NCBI GenBank assembly: GCA_963827685.1
Contig: CAWHBU010000001.1
Coordinates: forward strand, 160,001-224,000
Direction of reading: 5' to 3'
DNA: 64,000 nt
Source of the DNA: an uncultured delta proteobacterium
Lineage (GTDB): Bacteria; Desulfobacterota; BSN033; UBA1163
This document shows, in pieces, positions 5,360 to 43,492 of the stretch. A program made the translations under genes and the position numbers. The number at the start of each line of letters is the position of its first letter. The first letter of the stretch is position 1. A model generated the notes under the pieces. That model was given only the letters and a program-made list of their open reading frames with translations, had not been told where the DNA came from and did not search any database.

Positions 5360-5529
5360 AAATTCCAAGCTCCAAATTACAAATCCCAAATAAATTCCAA
5401 ATTTCAATATCAAATGACCAAAATGGCTTTATTGGGAATTTTGAATTTTGGTCATTGGGAATTATTTGTCATTTGGCCTGCCTGCGCGAAGCCGCTTCGG
5501 CGAAGGCAGGCGCTTGGGATTTGATGCTT
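5360..5529. repeat. 136-bp heptamer-periodic inverted-repeat element (copy A) with a 34-nt hairpin insert at 5477-5510
   Basis: AAATTCC-like units on the left arm and complementary units on the right arm; aligns without gaps to 11535-11670 and 57180-57315 once the insert is removed. Confidence 0.9.
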
Positions 5530-5534
5530 ATTCT

Positions 5535-6249: not shown

Positions 6250-7275
6250 TTATTTCCAATAACGATCGTTGGAGAGACGCTCCTCGATATTGATTTTATA
6301 AAATTCTTGAAGAGGCCTGAATACTTCTTTATCCTTTCCATAAACCTCTTTAAGGGCATTTCTAACAACCTCCATCCCTTTTAACGTCATCTTTCCAAGA
6401 GGTGGACGGCACGGCCCGGCTGGTAATCCAAGGCCTTTCATCATCGTCTTGATTGCTAAAGGGTTTCTAAATTTACATGGGACATCAAATCCCTCATAAG
6501 ATTCGACGGTATTGACCGTCACCACTTTGAAAAGAGGATCCAGAATATCTTTCAGCCGATTGGCCCTCTCCATATTTCCATTCTGTATGGCCTTGACCAT
6601 CTCCCCGATGGGGCCTGGAACGATATTTGACGTTACCGAGACCACTCCAGAGGCACGAATGTCATTTCGGGTCATCATCGCAAAGGTTATATCATCATCT
6701 CCCGAAAGAATATCAAAGTCCTCTCCACATAAGGTTCTCGTTTTGGCCATCCGCTCGAGATCTCCGGTGGCCTCTTTCACCGACCTCACATTCTTGAACT
6801 TGCGATGAAGGATGGCCAGGTCCTCCACCTCCAATTTCGTTCCTGTCCTTCCGGGGACGACGTAGGGCATGATGAAGGCCCTGCGGAACGCCTTTGCAAT
6901 CACTTCATAGTACTGGGTCCTCAATTCAAGAGAGGATGGCCCATTATAATAGCAATCTACAAGTAGGACCCCGTGGGCTCCGACCTCCATGGCATGTTTT
7001 GTTCCTCGAAGCGACTCTCTCGTGGAATTGGAACCCGTCCCTGCCATGACAAAGGCTTTAGCTTTTGCCACCTTAGCTGTCTTCGTAATCACCCGATCGT
7101 GTTCTTTCCAGTCCAAAGTCGGAGATTCGCCTGTCGTCCCAGTGGGGATGAGGTTTGCTCCGTTTTCTATCTGGAACTGAATGTTCTTTTCGAGACCTTC
7201 AAAATCGACCTCCCCTTTCCGATTAAACGGTGTCACCATCGCTGTCCAACAACCCTCAAACCTCTCGAGTTTCAT
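6250..7275 (-). CDS. dapA: 4-hydroxy-tetrahydrodipicolinate synthase (DapA family)
   Basis: TAMVTPF, GTTGES, AGTGSNST, YYN, Schiff-base VKEA, LSGDD. Confidence 0.88.
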   Translation of the reverse strand: MKLERFEGCWTAMVTPFNRKGEVDFEGLEKNIQFQIENGANLIPTGTTGESPTLDWKEHDRVITKTAKVAKAKAFVMAGTGSNSTRESLRGTKHAMEVGAHGVLLVDCYYNGPSSLELRTQYYEVIAKAFRRAFIMPYVVPGRTGTKLEVEDLAILHRKFKNVRSVKEATGDLERMAKTRTLCGEDFDILSGDDDITFAMMTRNDIRASGVVSVTSNIVPGPIGEMVKAIQNGNMERANRLKDILDPLFKVVTVNTVESYEGFDVPCKFRNPLAIKTMMKGLGLPAGPCRPPLGKMTLKGMEVVRNALKEVYGKDKEVFRPLQEFYKINIEERLSNDRYWK

Positions 7276-7292: not shown

Positions 7293-7388
7293 GTAGCGCC
7301 CCCATTTATTGCCTGCCTGCGGTAGGCAGGGGGGCGACTTAATCGTCAGCAGTACCTGCCTGCCGGTAGGTAGGAATGCCGCCGCTAC
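7293..7388. repeat. GTAG-type REP-like doublet with two CCTGCC-hairpin inserts
   Basis: GTAGCG...CGCTAC ends; 57 bp after removing 7312-7330 and 7355-7374, collinear with the reverse complement of 12594-12650. Confidence 0.9.
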
Positions 7389-7438
7389 ATTCTTCTTCTA
7401 TTATGAAGCAATAGAAAAAAATTTCAAGAAAAAATTAT

Positions 7439-7955
7439 TTACATGGAAAAACTGACCTTCCCAATTCGAGACCGTCTAGAACGAATTAATATTTTATAAA
7501 AAAAACCCAGGCTTCTTTCAGTAGCTTCCCTCTTGATCTCTCTGCGGGTCCCCTTTAGGTCTAATTTCTCCACCCATGTTCCTTTTCCCTTAGCAATGCC
7601 GATAAAAACTCTTCCAACAGGAGATCTTTTTGTTCCACCTGTTGGTCCTGCCACACCTGTGGTGGATAATCCGAATGTCGTATTAAAGGCTTTCCGAACT
7701 CCCTGAGCCATCTTCTTCGCCACCTGGGGACTCACAGCTCCGTATTTCTTTATATCATTCAAAGGAATCCCTAAATGCCTGGCCTTCGATTCGTTGCTGT
7801 AAGTTAACCATTCCTCCCATAAAGTAGTCCGAGCTGCCTGACACATTGGTGATACGATCGCTAATCAATCCTCCAGTACAAGATTCTGCAATCGATAGGG
7901 TCCATCTTCTTTCCCTCAAACGACCTCCAATGGTTTTTTCTAAGGAATTGCGCAT
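7439..7955 (-). pseudogene. cinA: CinA C-terminal domain (PncC-like NMN deamidase), frameshifted
   Basis: AESCTGG...GSSDYFMGGMV in one frame continues as TYSNESK...GAVS...STTGVAGP in another; one extra base at 7804-7807. Confidence 0.85.
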
Positions 7956-11472: not shown

Positions 11473-11500
11473 GTTTCAACCTCCTCTCTTATTAAAAAAT

Positions 11501-11707
11501 CGCAAAGGGCATAGAGTCAAGCGCATAGCGCCTAAAATCCCAAATCACAAAATCCAAATTACAAATAAGCTCCAAATTCCAATTTCAAATGACCAAAACG
11601 ATTTTGTTTGAGATTTCGAATTTGGACCGTTGGAATTTGTTTGTTATTTGGTGCTTATGATTTGGTGCTTCCATGTATGCTATGCTCCAGGCGCTTTGCG
11701 CTATGCT
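11501..11707. repeat. Nested repeat: GCATAGC/GCTATGC outer element containing the 136-bp element copy B (11535-11670)
   Basis: Outer arms GCAAAGGGCATAGAG..GCGCATAGCG and GCTATGCTCC..CGCTTTGCGCTATGC. Confidence 0.85.
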
Positions 11708-11716
11708 GTTTATTGA

Positions 11717-12593: not shown

Positions 12594-12650
12594 GTAGCGT
12601 CGGCATTTATTGCCGACGCTCTCTTCACCCCCAATAAATGAGGGCGCTAC
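12594..12650. repeat. GTAG-type REP-like doublet (uninterrupted copy)
   Basis: GTAGCGTCGGCATTTATTGCCGACGCT...CCCCCAATAAATGAGGGCGCTAC, 57 bp, two hairpins. Confidence 0.9.
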
Positions 12651-43423: not shown

Positions 43424-43492
43424 TTCCCCTCTTCGCACCCTCTCCTCCTGCCCAACGGCAGGCAGGCATTGGGGAGAGGGAAGGGTGAGGGG
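43424..43492. repeat. C-rich/G-rich hairpin with a 20-nt CCTGCC insert (43447-43466)
   Basis: CCCTCTCCT[CCTGCCCAACGGCAGGCAGG]CATTGGGGAGAGGG-AAGGGTGAGGGG. Confidence 0.85.

Follow-up and report, generated by a model that had tools for sequence, protein, structure and literature searches.

Ultra-short mobile hairpins shared among bacterial phyla, with a small GIY-YIG nuclease as a tentative candidate enzyme

Introduction

Among the small dispersed repeats (SDRs) of Nostocaceae (Elhai et al. 2008, Genome Res 18:1484), SDR5, which is 21 nt long, splits the HIP1 palindrome exactly between its third and fourth bases, and the function of SDRs is given as unknown in the passages of the papers that treat them (PMC5861425, PMC4390886, PMC13756078). 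According to the relevant passage of PMC5861425, no SDR-like repeats are reported outside Nostocaceae among the HIP1-enriched cyanobacterial genomes examined; passages on small dispersed repeats also stand in the citing papers PMC3116915 and PMC2884548. Transposition is assumed to require elements much longer than about 20 nt, and this described precedent has been without a mechanism for nearly two decades. In the account of Elhai et al. from 2008, SDRs are said to associate with heptamer arrays and miniature inverted-repeat transposable elements (MITEs) and to share a common hairpin fold. Here we describe elements of this kind, a 19–20-nt hairpin (S) and a 33–34-nt hairpin (L), in a 64,000-nt stretch of DNA (the window; C1:160001-224000 of the source genome, G000) from a Syntrophaceae-like deltaproteobacterium, where two S copies fill a repeat doublet at 7293..7388.

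Repetitive extragenic palindromic (REP) and REPIN sequences are short non-autonomous palindromes moved in trans by RAYT transposases, whose gene can be flanked by its own REPs (the REPtron arrangement), as passages of PMC3116915 and PMC3733652 describe; REPs are sometimes inserted within other palindromes, according to a passage of PMC3733652. S and L resemble REPs in being short palindromes that do not move autonomously. However, they carry no GTAG or CGTC tag, start with CCTGCC and are single 19–34-nt hairpins, not doublets. They also differ from the MITEs of DDE transposons, as they lack a target-site duplication (TSD) of 1–4 nt and as units across their superfamily measure 19–47 nt against 50–500 bp. 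Insertion sequences (IS) of the IS200/IS605 type, with IS608 as the model, require two different subterminal hairpins and a 4–5-nt target, have a bias towards the lagging strand and make no target duplication. Very short, mobile GC-rich palindromes that spread and nest in AT-richer genomes occur in fungal and algal organelles; these belong to another compartment and have other sequences than S and L.

S and L are discrete units with exact boundaries and no target duplication, gained at orthologous sites, and the 20-mer of S is identical across phyla. The units are inserted into unrelated sequences, namely other repeats, heptamer arrays, their own copies and the loops of displaced tRNA fragments. 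We propose, with a probability of roughly 60%, a common superfamily for both, made up of mobile hairpins that are ultra-short and non-coding and are moved in trans by a nuclease that reads their termini.

Results

Short hairpins lie inside other repeats of the window

The source assembly comprises 5.23 Mb in 14 contigs, with 47% G+C. An earlier note, made from the letters of the window, had described four short palindromic inserts (5477, 7312, 7355 and 43447), and the genome census presented below returned exactly these four in the window. The inserts and their hosts are as follows.

7293..7388, + strand: GTAG-tagged REP doublet, a REPIN-like host filled with two short inserts (read from the sequence)
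7312..7330, + strand: S element, 19-nt form CCTGCCTGCGGTAGGCAGG, inserted at the border of loop and 3′ arm of REP hairpin 1
7355..7374, + strand: S copy of the 20-nt form, CCTGCCTGCCGGTAGGTAGG, in which one base is variant (…GGTAGGTAGG), in the loop of REP hairpin 2
12594..12650, − strand: paralogous REP doublet without inserts, the empty-site reference (sequence comparison)
5361..5532, + strand: ~170-nt palindromic MITE-like host repeat, located downstream of ligT and upstream of recA
5477..5510, + strand: L element, 34 nt, with the termini of S and an inner UUCG-type hairpin, inside the MITE-like repeat
43426..43492, + strand: hairpin host CCCTCTCC…GGAGAGGG…GGGTGAGGGG
43447..43466, + strand: S variant CCTGCCCAACGGCAGGCAGG, with two mismatches to the reverse-strand consensus (genome census)

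The filled doublet is placed between a dapA-like gene (6250-7275, −) and a cinA-like gene (7439-7846, −). When 7312-7330 and 7355-7374 are removed, the remaining 57 nt give a gapless alignment with the reverse complement of 12594-12650, identical at 47/57 positions, which confirms the alignment given in the earlier note. The junction of the second insert reads GTA^AAT and its boundary is unambiguous. With their GTAG tag and inverted arrangement, both doublets fit REP/REPIN sequences; out of six genomes that contain both anchors, G000 alone has the one at 12594..12650. At 5477, the L copy occupies one arm of its host repeat, which has many paralogues in G000 and in relatives. The S copy at 43447 sits in the loop of the CCCTCTCC…GGAGAGGG hairpin, whose family serves as a host of S in other phyla too (L033, L082, L088, L090, L117), and one member of this family is itself an insertion in the related genome G010 relative to G000. 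The motif CCTGCC-N(1-14)-GGYAGG, which the earlier note had proposed to count, is found 6 times in the window, where 0.12 matches would be expected, and 0/100 shuffles reach 6. A scan of the window against Rfam gave no matches.

S and L are dispersed in the genome and share their termini

The most frequent 12-mer of the whole G000 genome, CCTGCCTGCCGG, is contained in the element. A census by Hamming distance, in which the 20-nt form of S was counted with up to two mismatches, yielded 190 loci, 122 of S and 68 of L; dispersal in high copy number is likewise a mark of SDRs, with units of about 20–27 nt. They comprise 95 loci of S20 (CCTGCCTGCCGGYAGGCAGG), 27 of the 19-nt form, 60 of L34 (CCTGCCTGCGCGAAGCCGCTTCGGCGAAGGCAGG) and 8 of the 33-nt form; control searches with reversed sequences in the same census had no matches. 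The census includes decayed copies. A crude call of open reading frames (ORFs) assigns 82% of the genome to coding sequence, and 174/190 copies are intergenic.

S and L share the inverted termini CCTGCCTGC…(K)AGGCAGG and vary in their interiors. Since further members in G000, 40–47 nt long, have the same termini and other interiors, the conserved part is the pair of ends, CCTGCCTGC…AGGCAGG. All forms of S and L are predicted to fold as hairpins, and S can be read as 7-bp inverted arms flanking a 6-bp spacer. At position 13 the commonest form of S has a T (50 copies), compared with 15 copies of the perfect palindrome, so that one strand holds a G·T wobble and the other an A·C mismatch. Neither element has coding capacity, and any enzyme must therefore act in trans.

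Boundaries are exact and orthologous sites are empty

For the precision test each copy was excised in silico and the exact junction was sought elsewhere in G000. At shift 0, an empty paralogue with the exact 8+8-nt junction was found for 45/122 S and 34/68 L copies, and at shifts of 3–5 bases or more there were no such matches for either element. In a boundary-shift grid with 10+10 nt, matches fell on the diagonal only, with 31 for S and 26 for L at (0,0). The grid cells for a target duplication of 1–4 nt held 0–1 matches each, hence no TSD of this length was seen.

We then compared the intergenic site between the dapA-like and cinA-like genes in genomes of the same genus. The REP doublet is missing in G011 and present without inserts (…ATTTACTGGGGGCG…) in G004, G005, G012 and G006; in G010 only hairpin 1 is filled, by an S of 20 nt at the corresponding position, and G000 has S in both hairpins. 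None of the seven same-genus genomes read carries the 7355 insert at its orthologous site. A related contig in the public run X4 has the doublet without inserts as well, including that at 7355. Similarly, the orthologous MITE copies in G010, G011 and G006 lack the L insert of 5477 (…CATTTGG^TGCTTGG…). Insertion is the parsimonious polarity of the filled and empty sites. Precise, TSD-free insertion, as claimed in the earlier note, is thus borne out by the excision tests, the boundary grid and the orthologous empty sites.

Palindromes can arise as library artefacts, and many of the carriers are metagenome-assembled genomes (MAGs). It nevertheless appears very improbable that the inserts are assembly or sequencing artefacts, or an immobile protein-binding or terminator motif. 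The same insert occupies the corresponding position of the independently assembled G010, presence and absence differ among orthologous sites, decayed copies exist, and copies occur in four cultured isolates. In addition, a Logan contig of run X1 matches the window letter for letter over 7308-7628; as X1 is possibly the source sample, this contig is not independent, and none of the Logan contigs spans the whole stretch. Within the limits of these data, an assembly artefact is ruled out for the inserts. The earlier note had named missing read support, random location and the lack of empty alleles as observations that would refute its claim; we found empty orthologues and an independent assembly with the insert, and these objections therefore do not hold.

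In G010, the orthologue (L121) of window 5361-5532 contains a ~47-nt CCCCTCATCCCATCCCTCTCCCCAGTGGGGAGAGGGGGAGGGTGAGGGG element inside the MITE, which is missing in G000, G011 and G006. Because this insertion is seen in G010 only, the cross-phylum hairpin family to which it belongs seems to be mobile too.

Copies lie preferentially in structured or repeated DNA

The sites of S and L in G000, after excision, have a mean folding energy of −8.0 kcal/mol, compared with −4.3 kcal/mol in random intergenic 60-mers. Copies lie in the apical loop of a perfect hairpin of at least 6 bp in 39/190 cases, against 136/5000 random intergenic positions (21% vs 2.7%). A loop classification based on minimum free energy did not separate the two sets (60/190 copies vs 271/1000 controls). 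The adjacent 15-mer is repeated elsewhere for 113/190 copies and 901/5000 controls, and period-7 tandem (heptamer) arrays stand beside 19/190 copies and 93/5000 controls. None of the empty S or L sites in G000 matched the body of a tRNA gene; one S lies 27 nt from tRNA-Gln. Recurrent hosts are GTAG REP doublets, a GTGCCCC… MITE with two different sites, the CCCTCTCC…GGAGAGGG hairpin and heptamer arrays. Since both relative orientations occur at one loop position of the REP, at least two independent insertions must have taken place there. Copies are also nested in copies, at CCG^G, one base off the centre of the element.

These counts qualify what the earlier note had said about targets. Enrichment inside palindromes over controls holds, as does the nesting of ultra-short elements in unrelated hosts, to which nesting in themselves is added. 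All four copies of the window do lie in other repeats, but a genome-wide "always" would be too strong, as 39/190 are in apical loops. Likewise, copies are enriched in loops and repeats, whereas only about a fifth are in clean hairpin loops. Because most copies fall outside clean loops, the defensible statement is that structured or repeated DNA is preferred.

One exact 20-mer is common to distant phyla

The closest named relatives of G000, MAGs labelled Syntrophaceae or delta proteobacterium, have amino-acid identities of 90, 73, 71 and 70% to it, and G000 is not a cyanobacterium; an anammox affiliation was rejected, as PF18582 is absent. Among 41 relatives, S was found in 14/14 other genomes of the genus, in 6/10 other genera of the family and in 0/16 genomes outside the family. 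L is present in 20 of these relatives, compared with 21 for S, and likewise was not found outside the family. An exact-match scan with one genome per species returned the 20-mer in at least 118 stretches, where about one is expected by chance. The phylum labels were taken from record titles and give about 15 phylum-level groups among the matches listed, as follows.

Bacteroidota: 44 among the matches listed
Patescibacteria or candidate phyla radiation (CPR): 30 among the matches listed
Delta-proteobacterial or Thermodesulfobacteriota: 7 among the matches listed
Ignavibacteria-type: 5 among the matches listed
Omnitrophota: 5 among the matches listed
Chloroflexota: 4 among the matches listed
Gammaproteobacteria: 3 among the matches listed
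Nitrospirota: 2 among the matches listed
Planctomycetes: 2 among the matches listed
Acidobacteriota: 2 among the matches listed
Stahlbacteria: 2 among the matches listed
Other labels, once each: 5 among the matches listed, of which the one titled Streptomyces griseus looks mis-binned
Unlabelled: 7 among the matches listed

Cultured isolates among the carriers listed are Olivibacter, Flavobacteriaceae R38, Thermobacterium and Salinimicrobium (n = 4). Copy numbers can be high: Olivibacter oleidegradans CCM 7765 (G043) has 36 exact matches and about 30 copies, a Stahlbacteria MAG of 1.3 Mb has 59, and genomes of ~1 Mb from Saccharibacteria, Absconditabacterales and Moranbacteria have 10–13 each. 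In an even sample of Bacteroidota the 20-mer was present in 34/301 species genomes with 1 to 43 matches, and the control had none. The exact 20-mer also occurs in 12 stretches of viral contigs (IMG/VR, L229-L240), two of which carry 2–3 copies; phages or prophages could be a vehicle of S between lineages.

The contexts known from G000 recur in other phyla. There, 17/116 copies are in apical hairpin loops, compared with 49/2350 controls, and heptamer arrays and self-nesting are found again. The base left of S is a purine in 107/116 cross-phylum copies, which is the only preference on the left side, and the base on the right is a G in 64/116, compared with a G content of 22% in the loci. Such an asymmetric flank preference around a near-palindrome and a G·T wobble confined to one strand both hint at a single active strand.

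Could such stable, GC-rich hairpins multiply without a dedicated enzyme, copied with the ordinary replication and repair proteins of the host by template switching or microhomology repair at stalled forks or nicked loops and passed between phyla by chance DNA transfer? Several observations would suit this. S lives in very different phyla including genomes of ~1 Mb; in Olivibacter the searches reported below found neither candidate enzyme; several unrelated mini-hairpin families behave alike; and G^G junctions, which amount to a 1-nt overlap with the last G of the element, are frequent (43/105 S and 26/47 L in G000, 45/116 across phyla). On the other hand, boundaries are exact to the base despite unrelated flanks, the distribution is patchy with bursts, as in Bacteroidota, and S and L share termini and not interiors, as recognition of the ends predicts. 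A 20-mer that is identical in ~15 phylum-level groups, asymmetric G·T included, is hard to maintain without something that reads the sequence. We therefore consider copying without an enzyme unlikely. One exact 20-mer in distant phyla implies a conserved reader and horizontal spread.

S and L behave like Nostocaceae SDRs, and the kind is therefore already known, although the earlier note had taken the system to be undescribed. As far as the descriptions in citing papers go, SDRs and S/L have in common a size of ~20 nt, dispersal in high copy and precise insertion into a palindrome. Presence or absence at orthologous sites goes along with this precision in S/L as in SDRs, and S/L lie in palindromes, heptamer arrays and MITEs, as SDRs reportedly do. 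SDR5 splits HIP1 at bases 3/4, and S splits its own centre at CCG^G. There are also differences. HIP1 is not enriched in G000 (79 observed, 80 expected). SDRs are reported only in Nostocaceae in the passage of PMC5861425, whereas S is found in a deltaproteobacterium, Bacteroidota, CPR, Omnitrophota and others, with an identical 20-mer in ~15 phylum-level groups. Finally, the SDR passages contain no enzyme lead, and for S there is one in GIY-YIG. A full-text search of the literature gave no such elements outside cyanobacteria, no conservation of one element across phyla and no link of GIY-YIG with tRNA cassettes, supplementary repeat tables being outside this search; a full-text search for the 12-mer CCTGCCTGCCGG matched only unrelated primer papers. 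What appears to be new is the occurrence of SDR-like elements outside cyanobacteria, in a Syntrophaceae-like deltaproteobacterium, and an exact 20-mer kept letter for letter across ~15 phylum-level groups. The phenomenon is not confined to cyanobacteria, and the candidate enzyme makes the question testable.

Y1 transposases accompany the REP hosts

In G000 a 175-aa Y1 protein (C6:428143-428668, −) is flanked on both sides by GTAG REP doublets of the window type and not by S. It is likely the RAYT of the GTAG REPIN family, and the link between GTAG doublets and RAYT drawn in the earlier note holds for the hosts. The HUH/RAYT of G000 would accordingly move the GTAG REP hosts and not the short inserts.

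We nevertheless weighed whether a HUH Y1 transposase, either RAYT or an IS200/IS605 TnpA, could move the short hairpins by single-strand excision and insertion. Hairpin recognition, single-stranded DNA (ssDNA) insertion beside a short motif and the absence of a target duplication are features of IS200/IS605, and S is a hairpin inserted precisely and without TSD. G000 has 25 matches to PF01797 (Y1_Tnp), among them the RAYT and 18 identical copies of a ~546-bp IS200-like element that encodes only a Y1 transposase (for example C1:267550-268095, C4:636035-636580 and C9:31421-31966; ends approximate) and appears to have been active recently. Of 21 IS copies, 8 lie within 1.6 kb of an S or L copy, which is above expectation; there is no fixed distance. 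However, S lacks the GTAG tag and does not resemble the end hairpins of the IS200-like element, CCGCCCAGCTCTGCTGGGCGG and CCCCGCAGCTCTGCTGCGGGG. It consists of one hairpin, its only preference on the left is for a purine, and no replication-strand bias was seen (see below). PF01797 does not tell carriers from non-carriers, as it is present in 39/41 relatives irrespective of S, and the PF01797 search did not find it in the carriers Olivibacter G043 (36 matches) and Saccharibacteria G046 (10 matches). A Y1 transposase as the mover of S and L is thus quite improbable, and a RAYT/HUH link of the short inserts is not supported. In the comparison with enzyme families that the earlier note had proposed, HUH/RAYT does not track carriers and GIY-YIG gains support.

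Two further proteins of G000, of 284 and 331 aa (C4:98185-99037, −; C6:19594-20587, +), have an N-terminal Y1 domain. The gene at C4:98185-99037 is flanked by GGGGTCAGGTC-type inverted repeats and resembles the TIRYT/TIRtron arrangement described in part of PMC3733652. In an Absconditabacterales MAG an S copy (G047:C79:1014-1033) lies 82 nt past a truncated Y1_Tnp match (750-932, model 2-60) and may interrupt a Y1_Tnp gene.

A small GIY-YIG gene recurs beside S

To look at neighbours of S, ORFs around 118 cross-phylum S copies were clustered all-vs-all. The only recurrent small family beside S was a stand-alone GIY-YIG protein of ~80 aa; the other top clusters were ordinary genes, as were the genes between S pairs (Ldh_2, FtsH, a hydrolase, DUF5674). 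PF01541 was recognized in 4/4 S-linked ORFs tested, with E-values of 1e-12 to 3e-18. The nearest solved relatives are UPF0213 and SLX1 (PDB 1ywl, 1zg2, 7wme, 6seh), and NCBIfam has no model naming the S-linked proteins. Their sizes are ~77–100 aa, with 77–81 aa for the linked ORFs.

In at least 10 genomes a displaced tRNA fragment harbours S in its D-loop, anticodon-loop or T-loop, 19–52 nt upstream of the start codon of the GIY-YIG gene. The arrangements are as follows.

L031, L045, L110, L154, L159-L164 and L217: S upstream of GIY-YIG
L031 (Saccharibacteria), L045 (Bacteroidetes) and L110 (Ignavibacteriota): ORF between the displaced tRNA fragment and the intact same tRNA
L154 (Stahlbacteria): S upstream and also 30 nt downstream of GIY-YIG; intact tRNA-Arg upstream, S-bearing tRNA-Arg copy after the ORF
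L062 (Dehalococcoidia): intact tRNA before the ORF, degenerate tRNA copy behind it
L159-L164 (Bacteroidota), and the family members G023 (L217) and G019 (L226): the same tRNA-cassette arrangement
L165, L169 and L170: displaced 3′ tRNA fragment, with S downstream of GIY-YIG

We infer that the GIY-YIG gene travels as a cassette in tRNA genes. In this it is similar to I-TevI-type homing endonucleases, since the S-linked genes are also cassettes in conserved genes with a duplicated gene fragment; in contrast to these enzymes, the S-linked proteins (77–81 aa) are a bare catalytic domain with no DNA-binding domain.

Presence of the gene was then compared with presence of S. In Bacteroidota, GIY-YIG occurs in 33/34 S-positive and 152/267 S-negative genomes (Fisher p = 8e-7), and among relatives in 20/21 S-positive and 8/20 S-negative ones (p = 2e-4). 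G020 has a divergent small GIY-YIG.

In the four same-genus genomes G004, G010, G011 and G013, at apparently one orthologous locus, a GIY-YIG ORF of ~76 codons lies between CCCCGTTAGAGAT-type arms (L211, 603-879; L212, 628-914; L215; L216). Inverted repeats of 17–22 nt, 243 nt apart, were found in L211 and L212 and not in L216 (2/3 tested). G000 contains 45 forward and 49 reverse CCCCGTTAGAGAT arms, such as C1:307943, C2:253349 and C2:887640, and 37 forward arms are paired, in MITE-like fashion, with an inverted arm 13–126 nt away. By its sequence this looks like an autonomous and a non-autonomous form of one element, with GIY-YIG as the sole gene. Furthermore, one GIY-YIG gene of G000 stands between GTCATTCCCGC…GCGGGAATC hairpins, whose family hosts S in other phyla, and hairpins of the GTCATTCCCGCAGAAGCGGGAATC type lie on either side of the GIY-YIG gene at C5:121273-121473 (−).

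Proposed mechanism

In the mechanism we envisage, one strand of the element would fold as a hairpin, be cut out or copied, and be joined into exposed ssDNA of a structured target, 3′ of a purine. Cutting and joining would be done by a trans-acting, sequence-specific nuclease or ligating activity, and the sequence would be constrained across phyla because a protein reads the termini. On the genomic evidence, the agent could possibly be the small stand-alone GIY-YIG nuclease related to the structure-specific endonucleases UPF0213 and SLX1; we put this forward as a tentative assignment, the likeliest of those considered. We know of no transposition or strand-joining activity in the UPF0213/SLX1-type GIY-YIG family. 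More generally, and just as tentatively, small GIY-YIG proteins of ~80 aa might be the transposases of pan-bacterial mini-elements, each subfamily having a cognate hairpin or pair of terminal inverted repeats, with insertion into single-stranded loops without TSD and with the nuclease gene itself carried by tRNA genes or enclosed by those inverted repeats. Candidate sets for such subfamilies are S/L (CCTGCC…GGCAGG), CCCGCC…GGCGGG, GTCATTCC…GGAATGAC and the CCCCGTTAGA… MITEs.

Several findings weigh against a nuclease that moves S and L, and against GIY-YIG as this nuclease. The mechanism is entirely inferred. Clean hairpin loops hold only the ~21% of G000 copies given above. Copies have no significantly preferred orientation, whether judged by the direction of flanking genes (S 37:30, L 16:26) or by GC skew (S 54:41, L 28:35), and therefore a lagging-strand ssDNA mechanism is not favoured. 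The co-occurrence counts are confounded by relatedness, as kin are not independent. GIY-YIG is frequent without S, as in the 152/267 Bacteroidota, and the S-negative relatives G016, G018 and G022 have the gene; it is thus not sufficient. In Olivibacter G043, with its 36 S matches, a profile search (A1) found no small GIY-YIG, and the PF01541 matches there are only in frames of 606 and 480 aa. None of the four GIY-YIG genes of G000 itself has S directly upstream. Among 50 Bacteroidota S copies, 43 have no GIY-YIG within ~700 nt; this set consists of listed places in low-copy genomes plus adjacent ones spotted beforehand, with the 7 adjacent copies picked because they were seen in listings, and it includes no copies of G043, G161 or G291 and only a minority of those in G057 and G189. 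Moreover, S-free relatives hold other mini-hairpins at the same tRNA-half positions (CCCGCC…GGCGGG and TCCGCC…GGCGGA; L224, L225, L228). At L224 (G018), L225 (G022), L228 (G001) and L062, 15-nt hairpins, CCCGCCNNNGGCGGG and TCCGCCNNNGGCGGA, stand in displaced tRNA-Ser or tRNA-Met-like fragments beside GIY-YIG, in the anticodon loop or D-loop positions that S takes elsewhere. The adjacency could thus mean that displaced tRNA halves are merely favoured, neutral, structured targets.

In that case the hairpins could be moved by another trans-acting enzyme, for which a tyrosine or serine recombinase with a 7-6-7 site, a HUH family other than Y1 and some further nuclease are conceivable. The architecture of S, with 7-bp inverted arms around a 6-bp spacer, is compatible with this, as are the mini-hairpins that fill tRNA halves in S-free genomes, a tRNA-Leu half (L191) that bears S with no GIY-YIG ORF found beside it, and the fact that GIY-YIG is neither sufficient nor, in Olivibacter, detectable. 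Against it, no other gene family recurs beside S in the 118 loci. A double-stranded circle of 20 bp would also be an implausible substrate for a recombinase, given the requirements of the recombinase synapse. The CCCCGTTAGAGAT loci favour hairpins that are moved by a cognate GIY-YIG over tRNA halves as mere targets. On balance we regard a different enzyme as somewhat unlikely.

Should a nuclease of ~80 aa indeed move a 20-nt hairpin into structured DNA, transposition would have a new minimal system. Many uncultured lineages would owe to it variation in their intergenic DNA and RNA structures, and it might serve as a compact tool with which short tags are inserted. GIY-YIG would then be the counterpart of RAYT for REPs, and would explain both the puzzle of the Nostoc SDRs and the conservation of the 20-mer. 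If the GIY-YIG lead fails, the conservation of the 20-mer is still worth pursuing.

Further repeats and GIY-YIG loci

On C3 of G000, nine tandem units of ~71 nt (GCCGCCAAGGCTTCGGTTGGCAAGCC…) fill the interval of ~1158400-1159050 between tRNA-Ser(GGA) and a GIY-YIG gene (1158145-1158369, −), and the 3′ end of tRNA-Ser(GGA) is repeated after this gene. In Bacteroidota, tandem arrays of 3 to 8 GIY-YIG ORFs with a spacing of ~350–380 nt were seen in G165, G091, G225 and G209 (in G165 at C34:6988-9766 and C23:114369-115328, in G091 at C19:516155-517910); the array units presumably are a repeated ORF plus tRNA fragment. GTCAT-tagged hairpins (GTCATTCC…, GTCATCCTGAGC…, GTCATTGCGAG…) recur in loci of many phyla and among the top 12-mers of G000. 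In the window, 11500-11711 belongs to a second repeat family of ~135–210 nt, which has many paralogues in G000 and in same-genus genomes.

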